DNA of 64,000 nt. It comes from Escherichia coli (GTDB lineage: Bacteria > Pseudomonadota > Gammaproteobacteria > Enterobacterales > Enterobacteriaceae). A program made the translations under genes and the position numbers. The stretch lies in the NCBI RefSeq assembly GCF_024223415.1, contig NZ_CP100501.1. One strand, given 5' to 3'. Below are positions 5,759-38,940 of the stretch, one piece after another. Under the pieces are notes generated by a model. That model searched no databases. It saw only the letters and a list, made by a program, of their open reading frames with translations, and was not told where the DNA came from. Position 1 is the stretch's first letter. Each line of letters opens with the position of its first letter.

Positions 5759-6010
5759 TCACACATCCTCTGCCGTTTCCCCCAGTTCATTTTCCAGTCG
5801 CCTGATGATATCTGCCTTACGCATCCCCTGCATGTGAGGCAGCAGGTCACGGACTGAAAGTGCCTGGGTGGTCCTCCAGACGGTGACGTCCACCTGTTCC
5901 GCATTTTCCCAGGCGTGCCATGTTCTCTGCGTCACGCCAAATTCTCTGGCCGCTTTTTCGCGTGACCAGAGCATGCTTTTTCGCCAGATTCGCAGTTCCC
6001 ATCCGGTCAT
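5759..6010 (-). CDS. small helix-turn-helix DNA-binding protein (83 aa)
   Basis: AREFGVTQRTWHAWE HTH-like motif; divergent from promoter repeat B; palindromic sites in its upstream region. Confidence 0.55.
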   Translation of the reverse strand: MTGWELRIWRKSMLWSREKAAREFGVTQRTWHAWENAEQVDVTVWRTTQALSVRDLLPHMQGMRKADIIRRLENELGETAEDV

Positions 6011-6025
6011 AAAACACCTTTGAAA

Positions 6026-6111
6026 AAGTGAAAAAACTTCACTTTATTTTATCATCACAATTGCCAAATCAGCGCGATAAATAAGTGTAAAAAAGTGAAG
6101 AAATTTCACTT
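6026..6111. promoter_or_regulatory. two palindromic operator-like sites, AAGTGAA-N5-TTCACTT
   Basis: aagtgaaaaaacttcactt at 6026-6044 and aagtgaagaaatttcactt at 6093-6111, in the intergenic region between the HTH gene and promoter repeat B. Confidence 0.4.
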
Positions 6112-6213
6112 TTTTTGGTTGTAAATGTCGTGCGGTTTTCTCTGTTTTCACCTGTGCGGGAGTGGTGTGCCAGTGACCACCACATGCCATTGTTGTGCCG
6201 TCGTTTTTCTTCA

Positions 6214-6543
6214 GTCGCGCCGGATGCGGCGCTCCCTGCACACCTTACGGTGTGTAAGGCCACTGCGCCTGATGGCGCAGCTGCCTCTGCCTGTCTGCCG
6301 CCGCACTGCGGCCTGTTCTCCGCAGACGGACTTTCCGGGGGTACATACACGACCACATCCCGTTTCAGTCGTCCAGGGGAGAGATGTACCAGCCACAAAA
6401 CTTTTTGCCGCAGGCGTCAAAAACTTTTGCGTCTGCCCCCGGACAACTGCCCCGTGACGTGGTGAGCGTCCCCCGTCGGAAAGGTCCACTGCGGGGAAAT
6501 CCCCGAAGACCCGGACGGCAGAAGGAGCTTCGCTCCTCCGGGA
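6214..6543 (+). promoter_or_regulatory. Frpo/ssi-like single-strand promoter repeat, copy B
   Basis: Near-identical to 3349-3675; ends about 45 bp before the start codon at 6587. Confidence 0.55.
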
Positions 6544-6586: not shown

Positions 6587-7438
6587 GTGATGAATCAGAC
6601 TTTACCCACTGCTGACCTGAATACTGCCGGCACGACAGATGTTATTCCGTCTGTGGCTATCGACCGCATCATCGCGCAGCGTAACGAAGGTATTGCACTG
6701 TTCATGCAGGCGATGGAATGCCTGGCGACAGCGCGCAGGATTCTGCTCGATGCTTCCGGTGACATTTTTCTCTACGGGTTTGAAGACTGCGTGACTGACT
6801 CCGTTCGATGCATGGATAAACCGGAAGAAGCGAAAAGGAATATCACCCGTCTTGCCGACCGGAAAATCTGGGACCGCCTGATGACAGATACGGGCATGTA
6901 CACCTTCATGAGTTCATGCCAGCGTGATGAGTGGAACAGCCAGCTGATGAGCGACACCTGTCCTGAAATCACCCTGGACAATGTACTGGCAACATTCCGC
7001 CATCTTAATGCCAGCAAGATGCAGACATTTGAACAGGGACTGATTGATGTCTACCGGAAATTGTCATGGGATTACAGAACCAATAATCCCTGCCGTCTGG
7101 GCAAGAAAATCATTATTGAAAACCTGCTGTACCGCTGGAGTAACGGGCGTGTGACGCTGGACTGCAGCAGACGGGAGGCACTGGATGACCTGGTACGTCC
7201 GTTTTATCTGCTGGAGGGGCGCAACGTTCCTGACTTCAGGAACAGCATCGGGGCGCAGTATGGTGAATTTCTCAGGAACGGCGACAATGTCGGTAAGTTG
7301 TTAGAAGGGGAATATTTTACGGTGCGTGGCTACCAGAAAGGGACCGTACACATTGTCTTTAAGCGTTCTGACCTTGTTGAAAAACTGAATGATATTATTG
7401 CACGGCATTATCCTGGTGCATTGCCGCCACGAGTCTGA
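6587..7438 (+). CDS. hypothetical protein (283 aa), first gene downstream of promoter repeat B
   Basis: GGAGACA SD-like then ATGATG; no catalytic motif recognised; followed by a hairpin terminator. Confidence 0.6.
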   Translation: MMNQTLPTADLNTAGTTDVIPSVAIDRIIAQRNEGIALFMQAMECLATARRILLDASGDIFLYGFEDCVTDSVRCMDKPEEAKRNITRLADRKIWDRLMTDTGMYTFMSSCQRDEWNSQLMSDTCPEITLDNVLATFRHLNASKMQTFEQGLIDVYRKLSWDYRTNNPCRLGKKIIIENLLYRWSNGRVTLDCSRREALDDLVRPFYLLEGRNVPDFRNSIGAQYGEFLRNGDNVGKLLEGEYFTVRGYQKGTVHIVFKRSDLVEKLNDIIARHYPGALPPRV

Positions 7439-7523: not shown

Positions 7524-7865
7524 TCAATTGTTGTTCATATCGATGCCATCTTTCCTGCCTGAATCTGTCTTTTTAGGTGCTGTTTTAGAGGAAGAACGGC
7601 GGGATGTTTTTTTCGATTCTGCTTCCCGAATAATGTCACGAAGTGCCTTCTCTCCTACTTCATACCCTGCATTTTTGAGCGTGTCACGAATATCTGCCAG
7701 TGTATAACCCTTTGTCCTTACCAGGACAATAATGTCATCACGAATGGCATCAAGAAAATCACGCAATGTTTTCCGTTGAGCGGTGAGATCTGGCAATTCC
7801 GATAAAGCAGCTTTTGCCAGCTGGATGTCATCATCTGAGTAAAATTTTTTAGAAGCCATTGGCAC
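7524..7865 (-). CDS. hypothetical oriT-proximal protein (about 111 aa) with basic C-terminus
   Basis: MASKKFYSDDDIQLAKAALSELPDL...; lysine/serine-rich C-terminal tail; transcribed away from oriT. Confidence 0.5.
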   Translation of the reverse strand: MPMASKKFYSDDDIQLAKAALSELPDLTAQRKTLRDFLDAIRDDIIVLVRTKGYTLADIRDTLKNAGYEVGEKALRDIIREAESKKTSRRSSSKTAPKKTDSGRKDGIDMNNN

Positions 7866-7989
7866 TTTCTCTCCGTTTAATCTTGAAGCCTGATTTTATC
7901 ATCAAAAACTGACTCCTGGCAGGGCTGCGCCCTGCCTCTGCCGTCTGCATAAGACTATGATGCACAAAAATAACAGGCTATAATGGCAT

Positions 7990-8090
7990 GAAAAACGGGA
8001 CAGGATGTGTAATCGTATAACCGCGCACGCACGGCTATACGATTACCACCTGGTCAGGGCTTAGCCCCGACACCCCGGTAAGGAGCAGAC
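7990..8090. other. origin of transfer (oriT) region
   Basis: Intergenic region immediately upstream of nikA with 11-bp inverted repeat gtaatcgtata (8009-8019) / tatacgattac (8036-8046); nick position not determinable by eye. Confidence 0.55.
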
Positions 8091-8091
8091 C

Positions 8092-8424
8092 ATGAGTGAG
8101 AAGAAAACCCGAAGTGGCAGTGAGAAACGGCAAAAGAATGTCCTCATTGCTGTTCGTTTTTCACCAGAAGAGGCTGAGATTGTTAAAGAAAAGGCAGAAA
8201 AAAACGGACTGACAGTTTCAACTCTGATAAGAAAAACTGTGCTGGGAAAACAGATAAATGCCCGCATTGATGAAGATTTTTTGAAAGAGCTGATGCGTCT
8301 TGGTCGCCTGCAGAAGCATCTGTTTGTGGAAGGAAAACGCACGGGAGATAAAGAGTATGCAGAGGTTCTCGTTGCTATTACAGAACTTGCTAATACTCTG
8401 CGAAGAGATTTAATGGGACGCTGA
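8092..8424 (+). CDS. nikA: NikA relaxosome accessory protein (ribbon-helix-helix)
   Basis: 110 aa; NGLTVSTLIRKTVLGKQIN...FLKELMRLGRLQKHLFVEGKRTGDKEYAEVLVAITE as in IncI1 NikA. Confidence 0.85.
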   Translation: MSEKKTRSGSEKRQKNVLIAVRFSPEEAEIVKEKAEKNGLTVSTLIRKTVLGKQINARIDEDFLKELMRLGRLQKHLFVEGKRTGDKEYAEVLVAITELANTLRRDLMGR

Positions 8425-18962: not shown

Positions 18963-21236
18963 TTAATGTCCGGGCCACTCCTGTTGTTCAGTGACGTGAT
19001 GTGATATTTCTTCTTTAGCTGTAGCCTCATTCTGGAGGTTTGAAGTAAATATACGCTCCATTGTTTGTGCAACCGATGGTGGCATTTTTTCTTCCACACG
19101 TTCCTCTTCCGGACAACTCTGTGTGATATAGCATACGTGCCGTTCTTCCCGGGATGTGGTATTGATGATGTGAACTGCCTTGTTCCACAGGCTGTTTCCC
19201 CGGGCAGAGATATCTGTATCATATTGCGGAAGCAGATCCAGCGATGTTTGTGTTTCGTTAAGCTGCTTCTGGAAGGTATCGATGATACGGTAAGGCTCTG
19301 TACGGTTTTTACGACGTTTACGGGATGGTTTTGCTGTCAGTACACCAATAATGCTGCTGACATGCTCCGGTGTGGGAAAACGGCGCTGCACTGTCCTGGG
19401 GACGAGACGGCGGAGACGCTCCAGGCGGGGGGCTTCAACGGAAATATAGCGGTTGATGACCACCGGATCACTGTCGCAACTTTTCTCGCTGTCCGGAATA
19501 TACACAGAGGCTGACGGCACCACATCCCCCTGGAAAACGGTAAAGAACTCACCGGCATTCAGTCTGATCAAATCCTGCACGTCGATTTTGCTTTCCATCT
19601 GGATGGTGATCTGGTTACCGTCCACCCAGGACTCACCCATCACACCATCGTGGCGCTGCAGGCTGCCCATTCTGGCCCGAGCCTCTTCACCGGCGGCATT
19701 TTTCACCGTTCTTGCCGTTTTGTCGTCACTGACAATGCGTCCGGCGAATTTGGTGCCGGCGTTCTGCATCAGTGTGGCGGTGTTGGTGGCGGAGGTCTGC
19801 CCTTCAATTCGCTCCTGATCCTGCGCCATCATTATCAGGGAAAACTCCAGTGAACGTACCTGGGTGGCCTCCACAGCAATGCGGTCTGTGTAGTAGGCAC
19901 CGACTTCGTCAAGGATACAGATATAGGGGAAGCGGCCTTTGTATTTTTTTACTTCCAGGGTCTGTGCGTCTGTGCCTTCCAGGCGGTAGCCCAGGTCACG
20001 GGCGAGGATCATGCTCTGCTGGGTGATGAACATACGACCGAGTGCCGACGTGGTATGGGCTGATGTGTCCAGTGCGGGGATCATCACAATCAGAATTCGG
20101 TCGCTGTGGATACTGTCGCGAATATCGATGTCGCCGGCATCTGCCGCAAAGACGTCCCCGAAGGTTTCGGCAAAGGTTGTGAATGTTTCCGAGAACTGAC
20201 CGGAGAGATAAGCATGCTGTTTACGGGGCTCCTCAGTCCAGGCTGACGGCGTTCTCACCAGTGACATATCGAATCCCGGAACGTCCTGCAGGTAATTTCT
20301 CAGTGGTGCGATGGCTTCTTCCGGCCACTGGTCATCAAGCCCACGGCAATAGAGTTTTGCCATACCTTCCAGCGTCATATGCTCCCGTAACATCTGCAGG
20401 GACATGGTTTTTCTTTCCCGGACGCACCAGAATTTTGTGCCAAAGACCAGGGCTTTGTTCATGGCTATCGCCCGTGACTGCCATTCACCCCCCTGAACGT
20501 TCTGGGGAAGCATGGACTGCATGGTTTCGGCGGTGAAGGCTTCGGTGCTGAATGCGAACGGGTTCCAGGTGTTTGACTGTGGGCGGGATTTTTCGCCGCT
20601 CTGAATGATTTCACTGCGGGATTTTCCGCCGTTCATGAAGTTGATGACCTCGATATCATCCTCCCGGCCAAAACGTCGGGAGAGATACCAGATTGTCCTC
20701 GTGGTATCGTTCTGTGCCTTTCCGTCAACAAAGGTAAAGCCTCTTCCCCAGCAGAGAGGGTTGAGCAGCCAGGCAAAGGTGGTTTCTGTTTTACCGCCAC
20801 CGGTGGTGGAAAAAAATATGATATGCCGGGTGAGGTCATCCATGCTCAGCCAGAGCTCACGACCGATATCGTTGATACGGCGGTAACCGACATAAAAAAT
20901 CCCCCGTGCGGGGGATGTTTCATCTGCTTCATACTGAAACAGGGTGGGCCAGAAGCTGAAGAGGCTTCGCCTGACCTTTCTGTCCTGGGAGGGGTCATCA
21001 AGGCTGAGCGTCATGGGCATACGCAGGGGGCATCGCCAGCGTTGCAGCGTGAATATCACGGAGGTGACCAGGGTGAACAGCAGACAGACAGGAAGGGCCA
21101 GTGGCCATATCAGGGCCGTAATGATACTGCCGGCCAGACACAGACCAATGATGTTCAGGTTGTGCAGTGCATTCCACAGCGGGTTTCCCCAGGCCGTGCG
21201 GTGTATGAGGTCAGGATTAACGTGATGCTGGCTCAT
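18963..21236 (-). CDS. trbC: TrbC, type IV coupling protein (DotL/VirD4-like ATPase)
   Basis: 757 aa; N-terminal TM segments; Walker A STTGGGKTE; size and position as in R64 trbC. Confidence 0.85.
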   Translation of the reverse strand: MSQHHVNPDLIHRTAWGNPLWNALHNLNIIGLCLAGSIITALIWPLALPVCLLFTLVTSVIFTLQRWRCPLRMPMTLSLDDPSQDRKVRRSLFSFWPTLFQYEADETSPARGIFYVGYRRINDIGRELWLSMDDLTRHIIFFSTTGGGKTETTFAWLLNPLCWGRGFTFVDGKAQNDTTRTIWYLSRRFGREDDIEVINFMNGGKSRSEIIQSGEKSRPQSNTWNPFAFSTEAFTAETMQSMLPQNVQGGEWQSRAIAMNKALVFGTKFWCVRERKTMSLQMLREHMTLEGMAKLYCRGLDDQWPEEAIAPLRNYLQDVPGFDMSLVRTPSAWTEEPRKQHAYLSGQFSETFTTFAETFGDVFAADAGDIDIRDSIHSDRILIVMIPALDTSAHTTSALGRMFITQQSMILARDLGYRLEGTDAQTLEVKKYKGRFPYICILDEVGAYYTDRIAVEATQVRSLEFSLIMMAQDQERIEGQTSATNTATLMQNAGTKFAGRIVSDDKTARTVKNAAGEEARARMGSLQRHDGVMGESWVDGNQITIQMESKIDVQDLIRLNAGEFFTVFQGDVVPSASVYIPDSEKSCDSDPVVINRYISVEAPRLERLRRLVPRTVQRRFPTPEHVSSIIGVLTAKPSRKRRKNRTEPYRIIDTFQKQLNETQTSLDLLPQYDTDISARGNSLWNKAVHIINTTSREERHVCYITQSCPEEERVEEKMPPSVAQTMERIFTSNLQNEATAKEEISHHVTEQQEWPGH

Positions 21237-22335
21237 TGTGATTATCCTCGGTATCTGTGGCTTTCAGGAACAGGCTGACGGTAGTGGCGTCTTTCAGGAT
21301 GCCGGACGGCAGGTGCCAGCCGGTATCGGATAACACCCATGGGGTACCGCCAAAACCGAACTGGCGGAAAGCCTGGTTATTGACATCGATGGCAGCACGA
21401 GCAGCGGTCAGACACTTTTCATCCGGTGCAGCCGGTGCATCGCCGGTGGGTGCCATACCACCGTCTGCGGAATACAGCTGATGCCATCCGGTCGCCCGTT
21501 TTTGTGCGTCCGGTTCACACAGCAGTGGCGCAGTCCGGTTTGTGCTGGCCTCTCCGCCGATTACGGAGACCGGATAAATCACCACGCTGAATTCCCGGGC
21601 CAGTTGCTTAAGCGCGGGCTCCAGAAGACGGCAGTTGATGCATGCGGGGTCAAGGAAGGCGTAGAGTGTGCGTTCATGACCAGTGGAGAGATTAATGGTG
21701 AACATACCCCGGTCCGCGTTGCGTTTAAGTACAGTGGCCAGATTACGGCGGGCTTCAGCGACCAGAGTATTTTTGTCTGCTGTTATCGCCGGGGTAGCGG
21801 ATGTCTCCTGCATTTCCTGTGATGCCGGGTGAACGATTTCATTTTTCGTCTCTGACGGGGCTACTGACCGGACAATTTCCTTGTCGATGTGTAATGGTGC
21901 TGTTTCTGTTACGGATTCTGTGACAGGTACCCTGAGAGGGGAATCGCTGTCCGGTTTCAGTAAAATATATCCGGCTGTTACCGCTGTCAGAAGTGCCAGC
22001 ACTAATCCTGCACCGTATATCAGCCCTCTCATGAAGCTGGTTTTCCGGGCAGGAAGTTCTGCATATGCCGCGCTCAGACAGCTGTCAATCGCGGAGAGCA
22101 TTCTGCCGATGTGATGTCCGGGACGTTCAGTATCAACGGTATCAACAAGCAGTGTTTCGGTTATTTCACGAAAAGGGGTGCTGAAGGACAGGTGCATCAG
22201 CCTGTTATTACGGTTAATCAGTGCGCCCAGTTCTGTAACCGGCAGGATGGCAATAACCTCCTGACCACCGTCAGGGTACAGGGCGGTCAGGGACAGGTGT
22301 TTATTGTTCAGTGTTGCAGTGTAGCGGATGGTCAT
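21217..22335 (-). CDS. trbB: TrbB, thioredoxin-fold disulfide isomerase-like transfer protein
   Basis: 372 aa; CINC (CxxC) motif; TM segment; synteny. Confidence 0.75.
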   Translation of the reverse strand: MTIRYTATLNNKHLSLTALYPDGGQEVIAILPVTELGALINRNNRLMHLSFSTPFREITETLLVDTVDTERPGHHIGRMLSAIDSCLSAAYAELPARKTSFMRGLIYGAGLVLALLTAVTAGYILLKPDSDSPLRVPVTESVTETAPLHIDKEIVRSVAPSETKNEIVHPASQEMQETSATPAITADKNTLVAEARRNLATVLKRNADRGMFTINLSTGHERTLYAFLDPACINCRLLEPALKQLAREFSVVIYPVSVIGGEASTNRTAPLLCEPDAQKRATGWHQLYSADGGMAPTGDAPAAPDEKCLTAARAAIDVNNQAFRQFGFGGTPWVLSDTGWHLPSGILKDATTVSLFLKATDTEDNHNEPASR

Positions 22336-23666
22336 TGTGCTTTTTCCTTGTCGGCGGGATGCTGTTTTTCGGTGGTTTCGGTGGTTTCGGTGGTTTCGGT
22401 GGTTTCGGTGGTTTCGGTGGTTTCGGTGGTTTCGGTGGTTTCGGTGGTTTCACCAGTGTCAGTGTCTTCGTCGTTATCATGGCGGCGGGGTATCACGTCA
22501 TCCGTGAGTGACCAGCGGGTCCTGATCTGACGTTTACGATCGCGATCTGGCTGAGGTTCGTCCCATATCAGGCCCAGCCCCAGCATGTCCCGTCGAAGCC
22601 CTTCAATGGCCTCTTCCACACAGGGTTCCGGGCAGGGGAGGCCGAGACGGCTGGCTTCATTTTCTGCCCGGGCAACGGCCACCACGCCGGCCCCTTCGAT
22701 GAAGCCTTTTGTGGTGTTTGCCCGGTGAAGGGCATAGAAGAGCGTCCGGTCAACGCCCTTGAGCCACAGCCAGTTCGGAGGCGTCAGGCGCAAATCATGT
22801 GCGTAAAGCCAGACCAGACCGCTGCGAACGTAACGGTGCTGCCTGAGCCACTTTTGTGCGCCTTCTGTTTTGATGACCCGGATAAAGGCGTTTCTGGCCA
22901 GTGAATACACCGGCGTGCTGAAACGCCCCTGGTCCCGTTTACTTTTGAGCCTGCAGGAGAGATTGAGGTTGTTCATCAGGGCTACCGCTGCTTTCCGGTC
23001 ACCGAGGAAGAACTGCAGGCCAAAGATGGCAAAGAGCGCTTTTTCATGTGGGGCCATGTCTTTCCAGCTGGTCAGTGGTTGCCCCAGTTGCGCCATGAAG
23101 CACTGGCGTGTGGACGCAACATCGAGCTGCATGTTGCGGATAAGGTTGTTCTGCTCCACAAAGGCTTCGGGGGTTAGTGCGACACGGCGCTCGGGACGTT
23201 TTTGTCCGTGGAAGAGTCTGTTGTTGTCTCCGTCAGCCAGAACGGGGGCGATCGCCGGTGACAGAGCTGAAAAAATATGGGGCAGTGTGTGGATATTCAG
23301 TGGCCTGCGGGTAAAACGGGGCTGGGCCGGATGGTGAAACCACATCCACAGAAAGCCGAATGTCATGGGAAGCAGAATCAGCCAGAGGATCCCCACTGTC
23401 CGGGACATAACATCCAGCCACTGGCTGAAAGTGATGGTTGCCGCGTTGTTAGCAGTGATGGCCAGCAGGTTGTAACGGGGGACGGCAAAGTTGTGAAAGG
23501 GCCCCCAGTCAATCATGCCCCACAGTGTGTGCAGGATCAGGCAGGAGGCGAAGACGATTTCAGGTAAAAAGCGCCAGATGATAATCGCAAAGAGCAGGCA
23601 TATGGCACCGACGATATACCATATAGCCATTGGATCTTCGGCGGCAGACGTCTGTTGGTAAGACAC
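22332..23666 (-). CDS. trbA: TrbA (DotM-like inner-membrane transfer protein)
   Basis: 444 aa; N-terminal TM helices; synteny; C-terminal (ETT)9 repeat. Confidence 0.75.
   Translation of the reverse strand: MSYQQTSAAEDPMAIWYIVGAICLLFAIIIWRFLPEIVFASCLILHTLWGMIDWGPFHNFAVPRYNLLAITANNAATITFSQWLDVMSRTVGILWLILLPMTFGFLWMWFHHPAQPRFTRRPLNIHTLPHIFSALSPAIAPVLADGDNNRLFHGQKRPERRVALTPEAFVEQNNLIRNMQLDVASTRQCFMAQLGQPLTSWKDMAPHEKALFAIFGLQFFLGDRKAAVALMNNLNLSCRLKSKRDQGRFSTPVYSLARNAFIRVIKTEGAQKWLRQHRYVRSGLVWLYAHDLRLTPPNWLWLKGVDRTLFYALHRANTTKGFIEGAGVVAVARAENEASRLGLPCPEPCVEEAIEGLRRDMLGLGLIWDEPQPDRDRKRQIRTRWSLTDDVIPRRHDNDEDTDTGETTETTETTETTETTETTETTETTETTEKQHPADKEKAQ
22371..22451 (-). repeat. 9 x 9-bp perfect tandem repeat (ggtggtttc) inside trbA, encoding (ETT)9
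   Basis: Direct reading of sequence; in-frame in trbA C-terminus. Confidence 0.9.
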
Positions 23667-23976
23667 GGGGATTCCTCCATAGATGAATGGATAAATTTCG
23701 GGATTAAGTCGGGTGGCATGAATGCGAATCAGCGCCGGTAATAACCGGACAGGAATGAATTCAACAGGACATTTTTACAGAGAAGAGCGAACGGCAGAAG
23801 GTGGTGGGAGACAGGTACAAAAAAACCGACTGGTGAGGCCGGTTTTTTTGCGATTCCGGGGTGGAGTTGGTGGCTCTGACCGGAGGAAGTCTCTTTTCAG
23901 CTAACAATGAGAGAGCTGTTGTGACAGGCAATGTAAGAGTAAGCAGCAGTGATTTCCTCCATTGACGGAGAAACGG

Positions 23977-26687: not shown

Positions 26688-26941
26688 CGGTGGGGTACAA
26701 ACGCAGAAATTTTGTTGTCATTACATCATCAGTTTTAGCCTGCAGAGACGCTGAAAAATCAGCGTTTTCAGACCCTGTTCAGGTTAGTGAATATTCTTGC
26801 CTGGCCTTTCGGCAATATCAATCCCCTGATGTGTGCACACGTAGTCACTTTCCGGCTTTATTTCTGTCCCTGACACAAAATACGTGGTGGCATGAAAAGG
26901 ATTGTGGCGGACAGGAAAACGATTAGAATAGCGGCGGGCGC

Positions 26942-27235
26942 TTGAGGCTGTATGCCGAAAGCGTTTTGTGGACGGCATGTAGCAGAAAGCCCCAGGCGAT
27001 TTTTTTATCAATCAACCCAGGGCCCACTGTAATGCCTAGACAACATTATAGTAGCCCGATGACGGCCGAAAGGCAATGGAGGGGCTGCGATGCCACAACG
27101 AACGTTTTTAATGATGTTAATCGTCGTCTGTGTGACGATACTGTGTTTTGTCTGGATGGTGAGGGATTCGCTTTGCGGATTTCGTATCGAGCAGGGAAAT
27201 ACGGTGCTTGTGGCAACGTTAGCCTACGAAGTTAA
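26942..27235 (+). CDS. pndC: PndC-like overlapping reading frame (mok analogue) of the pnd locus
   Basis: ORF overlapping pndA in another frame, as in hok/mok architecture. Confidence 0.4.
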   Translation: MRLYAESVLWTACSRKPQAIFLSINPGPTVMPRQHYSSPMTAERQWRGCDATTNVFNDVNRRLCDDTVFCLDGEGFALRISYRAGKYGACGNVSLRS

Positions 27236-28516: not shown

Positions 28517-28603
28517 AATAAACCTCCATATTCACCTGAATGTATTTTAATCTCTTCAGGTGAATATGGCAATGGTATTTTAGTGGTTTTTCGATATTTT
28601 CAT

Positions 28604-36566: not shown

Positions 36567-38940
<2,374 letters not shown>

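Follow-up and report, generated by a model that had tools for sequence, protein, structure and literature searches.

The 64,000-nucleotide stretch of Escherichia coli DNA analysed here (the window) carries an inverted repeat in the 226-bp intergenic region upstream of nikA, and this repeat raises two questions: does it mark the origin of transfer (oriT) of a conjugative plasmid and, if so, which strand leaves the donor and which genes reach the recipient first? A sequence-only reading of the stretch had assigned the repeat to oriT. That assignment is upheld by the homology of the site with R64, by the presence of nikAB next door and by the finding that it is the sole site of this type in the window. 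The locus is very probably the oriT of an I-complex conjugative plasmid, built on the architecture of R64 (IncI1) and representing the IncB/O variant of which pIP72 is an example. The sequence features, the homology, the conservation, the covariation and the gene identities on which this conclusion rests were all established for the molecule under study.

Two inverted repeats precede nikA

The sequences GTAATCGTATA (8009-8019) and TATACGATTAC (8036-8046) are exact reverse complements and form an 11-bp inverted repeat located 46-83 bp upstream of the nikA ATG (8092), in agreement with the 45-85 bp given by the sequence-only reading. The exact core described there is real, but it is only a part of the element: the functional repeat is imperfect and measures 17-18 bp, and it is accompanied by a second, conserved repeat of 8 bp. 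The repeat finder returned for the long repeat two arms of 18 nt, at 8009-8026 and 8029-8046, which are complementary at 16 of 18 positions (89%) and separated by a 2-nt centre. The nick-proximal arm (8009-8026) is the equivalent of repeat A of R64 and, by analogy, the predicted binding site of NikA; the distal arm (8029-8046) is the equivalent of repeat B and forms with the proximal arm the hairpin of the transferred strand. The second repeat (8053-8071) consists of GTCAGGGC (8053-8060) and GCCCCGAC (8064-8071) around a 3-nt loop, and contains an A.C mismatch (8056/8068) that is kept in all 18 distinct homologues. When folded, the minus strand from 8080 to 7990 gives two hairpins with an energy of -26.2 kcal/mol (z = -6.3). 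The nick region and both repeats together delimit an approximate minimal oriT at 7990-8080 on the minus strand, which corresponds to the extent of conservation common with small plasmids that carry oriT only.

Could such a palindrome be a chance occurrence? First-order Markov simulations of 226-bp intergenic regions of matched composition produced a perfect repeat of 11 bp or more, its loop not exceeding 30 nt, in 0.11% of the cases, that is, a probability of about 0.001 for the intergenic region, and the same simulations predict about 0.48 such repeats per 64 kb. With roughly 0.5 perfect 11-bp short-loop palindromes expected per 64 kb, the repeat is only modestly unusual over the whole window, and it is very unlikely at its position, which is homologous to that of the R64 repeat.

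Four other long perfect inverted repeats, with arms of about 14-22 bp, occur at 16730-16768, 18760-18810, 28526-28569 and 36766-36815. They exceed the 0.48 expected per 64 kb, and some of them may be IS ends or terminators.

The nick region designates the transferred strand

The nick region (7996-8008, minus strand) reads 5'-ACATCCTG^TCCCG-3', where the caret marks the putative nic between G8001 and T8000. The nick consensus of the MOBP family is (C/T)ATCCTG(C/T) (PMC3772185), and its form YATCCTG^Y finds a match on the minus strand at 8007-8000, CATCCTGT (5'-CATCCTG^T-3'). By analogy with RP4 and R64, cleavage would occur after the G of ATCCTG on the minus strand, between 8001 and 8000. For R64, the nick site was reportedly determined by Furuya and Komano in 1991. 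In that plasmid, 8 nt lie between the nick and the proximal arm of the long repeat. The distance from the putative nick to the long repeat is here exactly 8 nt (8008-8001), and no insertion or deletion alters this spacing in any of 19 homologues; this constancy agrees with the requirement for a 'precise location' that the title of a 1997 article by Furuya and Komano is said to state.

From 5' to 3', the minus strand thus presents the 8-bp repeat, the long repeat, 8 nt and ATCCTG^T. This is the canonical MOBP layout, with YATCCTGY on the minus strand at 8000-8007 and the repeat 5' of it (PMC3772185). Since the nick consensus lies on the minus strand and the repeat stands 5' of the nick on that same strand, the minus strand is the transferred strand (T-strand) and runs toward coordinate 1. 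The sequence-only reading had proposed the same strand and the same direction, with which the orientation of the nick consensus agrees, but its entry point has to be moved: the strand was thought to enter from about 8050, whereas the nick inferred at 8001/8000 places the entry at about 8000 and the repeat at the trailing end. Because this nick lies to the left of the repeat, both repeats and nikAB would be transferred last.

That reading had also considered the case of an oriT mapping elsewhere. The 64-kb window was scanned for a second nick region or a second 8-bp repeat motif, and none was found within it; the longer motif of the 8-bp repeat matches once.

Conservation and covariation among homologous origins

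The 226-bp intergenic region aligns base for base with the oriT of R64. An alignment of the window with R64 (NC_005014.1), pIP72 and an Igamma/K1-type plasmid has a mean column identity of 94%; the four plasmids do not differ in the block CGGGACAGGATGTG (7996-8009), and a second conserved block, GGTCAGGGCTT(A/C)GCCCCGACACCCC, contains the 8-bp inverted repeat. Alignment to the R64 oriT core, the check suggested by the sequence-only reading, accordingly gives a nick region (13 nt) and an 8-bp repeat identical to those of R64, with the long repeat in the same place.

A distant BLAST search with the oriT core retrieved 4,106 plasmid records. The family alignment comprises 19 diverse oriTs, from IncI1, B/O, Igamma/K1 and K2/Z plasmids, an IncX1 plasmid with nikAB, Pectobacterium, an MPF_I plasmid of Klebsiella and small Col plasmids (1.4-7.4 kb), and covariation was analysed over 18 distinct homologues. 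The nick region is nearly invariant across the 19 homologues. The long repeat behaves in another manner: 8 of the 10 outer pairs have changed on both sides in a compensatory way, 90% of the cells are paired, and neither 500 shuffles (0/500) nor any shifted register reaches the observed values. Conservation and covariation together refute a chance palindrome, the probability of which we consider to be practically negligible. The 8-bp repeat varies little or not at all in the 18 distinct homologues and displays no covariation. This invariance, which includes the A.C mismatch, argues for a sequence-specific recognition and not for mere hairpin formation, and suggests that the sequence of the 8-bp repeat, and not its hairpin alone, may be what is read, possibly by NikB.

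The NikA proteins of nine of the aligned plasmids were compared. Residues 16-24, which constitute the β-strand, are the most variable part of the protein, the C-terminal half is strongly conserved, and in these nine plasmids the β-strand region changes together with the sequence of the repeat. The region KNVLIAVRFS in the window and pIP72 is found with the repeat arm GTAATCGTATA, KTVVRTLRFS in R64 with GCAATTGTAATA, and RIVKFTARFT in K2/Z with GGGAATGTC. A repeat to which NikA binds would be expected to vary in parallel with the protein in this way. A repeat that did not match this site had been named as an objection to the assignment; at the level of the sequence, the objection is answered by the manner in which the β-strand follows the repeat arms.

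The nikAB genes and a divergent yggA homologue

As the sequence-only reading had it, nikA and nikB stand to the right of oriT; both are now identified by Pfam and NCBIfam matches and by their identity with the R64 genes, and NikA by a PDB match as well. The nikA gene (8092..8424, plus strand) encodes a ribbon-helix-helix (RHH) relaxosome accessory protein of 110 aa, which matches the NikA-like profile of Pfam (4.9e-22), the MobA profile of NCBIfam (2.3e-32) and the solved N-terminal RHH domain of R64 NikA(1-51), PDB 2BA3 (4.4e-8). It is 67% identical to R64 NikA, with the differences concentrated in the DNA-reading N-terminal part. The nikB gene (8436..11138, plus strand) encodes a MOBP relaxase of 900 aa, recognised by the Relaxase profile of Pfam (1.5e-28) and TraI_MobP_relax of NCBIfam (8.9e-125), and 70% identical to R64 NikB over its full length; Tyr22 and the histidine motif HTDTDNLHVHV are present in the alignment. 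The search of the NikB relaxase domain against PDB sequences gave no match. Both genes are full-length open reading frames.

Divergently from nikA, the minus strand carries at 7524..7859 a yggA homologue of 111 aa, annotated as a CDS in pIP72 and R64, for which the searches of Pfam and NCBIfam gave no match. It is the first gene on the leading side, and the T-strand carries its sense strand and not its template. In pCTX-M3, the YggA homologue Orf35 represses nikA/nikB/traH, and its deletion lifts mobilisation more than 200-fold (PMC6112013); the yggA homologue of the window is a possible repressor of the nikAB operon. The name it bears in RefSeq, 'molybdopterin-guanine dinucleotide biosynthesis protein MobC', looks out of place beside oriT.

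The proximity of these divergent genes leads to another explanation of the repeat, which would be mainly a transcriptional element for yggA and nikAB (a NikA operator, a 5'-UTR hairpin or an attenuator) and not an oriT. A perfect TATAAT hexamer, seen by eye just upstream of the nick region (7979..7984, plus strand), could be the -10 box of the nikAB (oriT operon) promoter. The sigma-70 consensus scan found no plus-strand promoter for nikA, and it missed this hexamer because its -35 is poor. If transcription did start there, the repeat, which lies between the hexamer and the start of nikA, would belong to the nikAB leader. On the other side, the promoter scan indicates a promoter-like site for yggA at 7922-7893. 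RHH proteins are moreover often autoregulators, and in NCBIfam NikA weakly matches the RP4 TraJ regulator as well as RelB antitoxins. However, the same element of 80-90 bp is found in hundreds of small plasmids without nikA, nikB or yggA, and cannot regulate these genes there; only an oriT function accounts for the invariant MOBP nick sequence and for the constancy of its spacing. An exclusively regulatory role is therefore very unlikely, and a regulatory role added to the oriT function is possible.

The leading region

With the minus strand transferred toward coordinate 1, psiB, psiA and ardA are leading-region genes. The psiB gene (285-722; NCBIfam PsiB, 8.5e-80), psiA (719-1438; Pfam PsiA) and ardA (about 2496-2996; Pfam ArdA) all lie on the plus strand, and these anti-restriction and SOS-inhibition genes, at 285-2996, lie on the side of the nick that reaches the recipient before the rest. 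Two further genes to the left of oriT belong to the Rpn family and to DUF4942, respectively; the gene order is that of R64 and pIP72, and the DNA is 96-99% identical to that of R64. The T-strand (minus) is the template of psiB, psiA, ardA and most of the other open reading frames on this side, whose sense strand is the plus strand. In leading regions, anti-defence genes are encoded in such a way that the T-strand is the template (PMC11541004), and ssDNA promoters drive the early expression of ardA and psiB in IncI1 plasmids (PMC12672017). The polarity advanced by the sequence-only reading thus fits the leading-region assignment, psiB, psiA and ardA being on the side that enters first with the T-strand as their template.

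The argument on which that reading had founded this polarity, namely that all the leading-region genes point toward oriT, holds for psiB, psiA, ardA and most open reading frames, but is an overstatement, since three genes annotated in pIP72 and R64 are on the minus strand to the left of oriT: the yggA homologue, a helix-turn-helix regulator gene (5759-6010) and a small hypothetical gene (6044-6241), the latter two being conserved in R64 and pIP72.

Upstream of ardA, the minus strand of the segment 2032-2495 folds into a hairpin of about 240 nt (-113.6 kcal/mol, z = -5.15). From its fold alone, this hairpin is consistent with a candidate class 2 ssDNA promoter, a type that has been reported for ardA and klcA of pESBL (PMC12672017).

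Plasmid rearrangement and a break of identity inside oriT

An insertion of about 7.8 kb (about 11170-18960) separates nikB from trbC; in pIP72 and R64 these two genes are neighbours. A toxin-antitoxin pair, pemI/pemK (MazE/MazF-type), lies in this insertion along with elements of the IS3 family, and so do two ALIL frameshift pseudoknots (12391-12477, plus strand; 18042-18158, minus strand). The trbC, trbB and trbA genes follow it, intact, on the minus strand (18963-23666). This IS-rich insertion shows that the plasmid has been rearranged, and no identified transfer gene is disrupted.

Further along, Rfam detects a sok antitoxin RNA (26936-27092, plus strand; 125.6 bits), which points to a hok/sok or pnd-type post-segregational killing locus, and AgrB (23817-23904, minus strand; 51.8 bits), which adjoins a DinQ-like type I toxin annotated in pIP72.

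The IS rearrangement beside nikB, together with the fact that 64 kb of the plasmid are visible, could be taken to mean that the site is an inactive relic and that the functional oriT lies elsewhere on the plasmid. Against this stand the full-length nikA and nikB genes, the single occurrence of the nick region and 8-bp repeat motif in the window, and above all the preservation of the 91-bp core (7990-8080), which 136 PLSDB plasmid records contain at an identity of 99% or more (100% among the matches listed), many of them typed as conjugative. We regard a relic as a little less probable still than an exclusively regulatory element. Chance, a regulatory role alone and an inactive relic have all been rejected, on the grounds of conservation, covariation, occurrence in small plasmids and intact nikAB.

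The oriT is also the place where the resemblance to R64 changes abruptly. The window is 96-100% identical to R64 between about 1,000 and 8,000, and about 56-85% identical over the long repeat, nikA and nikB; the break, from about 97% to about 72%, falls around 8000-8010, inside oriT, and as the nick region is invariant in all lineages the junction is not located more precisely. Another configuration is offered by the Igamma/K1-type plasmid CP093113.1. Around oriT it matches R64 at 96-100% identity, but in one patch of about 200 bp the identity is about 70-94%. This patch (6951-7150 of the R64 locus) covers the inner long repeat and the first ~35 codons of nikA, which encode the RHH β-strand and helix 1, and it begins inside the repeat and not at the nick. 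Such a distribution suggests that the repeat and the DNA-binding domain of NikA may form a specificity cassette, either co-evolving or swappable.

Could oriT be an evolutionary junction, in which the repeat and the NikA domain are co-inherited as a cassette, and at which the leading regions of I-complex plasmids are exchanged by NikB-mediated oriT-oriT recombination at the nick? NikB catalyses an oriT-specific recombination, according to the statement in PMC5714925 that cites Furuya & Komano 2003. We put this idea forward tentatively and hold it to be rather doubtful; the break of identity is also compatible with ordinary homologous recombination, with a selection that differs on each side, or with leading and transfer modules that have each had a history of their own.

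A model for the initiation and termination of transfer

The model we propose for this oriT takes the binding, the nicking, the exact nick position and the role in termination from R64, RP4 and pCTX-M3. By analogy with R64, NikA would bind the nick-proximal arm (8009-8026) and would thereby place the relaxase NikB on the nick region, 8 nt away. NikB would then cut the minus strand after the G of 5'-ATCCTG-3' (8001/8000) and would stay attached to the 5' end. The minus strand would leave in the 5' to 3' direction, so that coordinates 8000 to 1 would be the first to penetrate into the recipient, carrying ardA, psiA and psiB, and both repeats and nikAB would be the last. In the incoming strand, the 17-18-bp and 8-bp repeats would fold beside the regenerated nick and would support termination and recircularisation.

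The position and polarity of oriT fix the first entrants (ardA, psiA, psiB) and the last (nikAB), and they support the annotation of the rest of the window. In addition, the pairing of a repeat with a lineage-specific NikA predicts which oriT-only plasmids can be mobilised, such as the Col(MG828)-type plasmid of 1.5 kb and the ColRNAI plasmid of 7.4 kb that carry the same arms, and this prediction is relevant to the spread of resistance genes.

Comparison with known transfer origins

The architecture is the one described for R64 and ColIb-P9, with which the window shares, in order, the nick region, the 8 nt, the 17-bp imperfect repeat, the 8-bp repeat and nikA-nikB, as well as the orientation of the T-strand and the leading region on the other side. 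An R64-type oriT directly precedes nikA and can be identified from its repeats of 17 bp and 8 bp; those of 17 bp vary from plasmid to plasmid, since they belong to the site of NikA (PMC3817090). The required core is composed of the nick region and repeat A, as PMC4743918 states in citing Furuya & Komano 1997, and termination needs the complete inverted repeat, as mentioned in PMC5863519 with reference to Furuya & Komano 2000. The window differs from R64 at 8 positions of the repeat (8010, 8014, 8018, 8019, 8025, 8033, 8041 and 8045), mostly in compensatory pairs: the R64 arm is GCAATTGTAATA and that of the window GTAATCGTATAA, and the two arms read GCAATTGTAATA...TATTACAATTGC in R64 and GTAATCGTATA...TATACGATTAC in the window. 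These differences between the arms, the divergence of NikA, centred on its N-terminal part, and that of NikB make a different NikA/repeat specificity likely. With several positions changed in the arms, R64 NikA is not expected to recognise the repeat of the window, which, judging from co-variation, would be recognised by its cognate NikA.

The RP4 origin (IncP, TraJ-TraI) and other MOBP origins have in common with the window the nick consensus (C/T)ATCCTG(C/T), a repeat that stands 5' of the nick in the T-strand and is bound by an accessory protein, and divergent operons on either side of oriT (PMC3772185). The resemblance stops there: no sequence homology extends beyond the nick core, and the accessory protein and the repeat are different. 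The IncL/M plasmid pCTX-M3 has an oriT predicted from its similarity to R64, a nikA-nikB pair and the YggA homologue Orf35 on the leading side (PMC6112013), but its nick core is ACATCTTGT as against ACATCCTGT, its NikA is only about 30% identical to that of R64, and its oriT-nikAB unit and tra operon are fused. Its oriT no longer functions once four bases of the homologous nick region have been substituted (PMC7440800).

The IncB/O plasmids provide the nearest relatives. The best DNA match of the oriT-nikA stretch is pIP72 (99.3% identical; typed IncI1/B/O, MOBP, MPF_I), and most IncI1 records reach a high identity only to the left of nikA. The repeat arms, the nick region and the 8-bp repeat of pIP72 are all as in the window, which differs from it only by scattered substitutions in the flanks and by the IS/pemIK insertion downstream of nikB; nothing of substance distinguishes the window from the IncB/O oriTs of pIP72, p3521, pO26-CRL125, p838B-R and the pBuzz-like mimic. 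An 85-bp oriT identical to that of the IncB plasmid p3521 has been described, with 8-bp repeats as in R64 and divergent 17-bp repeats (PMC3817090), and the conjugation of the B/O/Z-type plasmid pMS7163B requires nikB (PMC10286972).

The same origin circulates on small plasmids. At an identity of at least 90%, the 91-bp core is present in 334 records, 208 of which are typed 'mobilizable'. According to PMC11389934, which refers to Moran & Hall 2019, small plasmids of the pBuzz type took their oriT from the B/O plasmid p838B-R, which mobilises them. Two plasmids without nikA and nikB bear an oriT copy with B/O-type arms, NZ_CP050867.1 (ColRNAI, 7.4 kb; positions 1501-1580, 98.8% identical) and NZ_CP124391.1 (Col(MG828), 1549 bp; positions 101-186, 91.9% identical), and on the basis of these arms both are predicted to be mobilised in trans by a plasmid of the window type. 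The locus is thus an already known feature, a textbook R64-type oriT whose B/O variant is present in the literature, and not a new kind of system.
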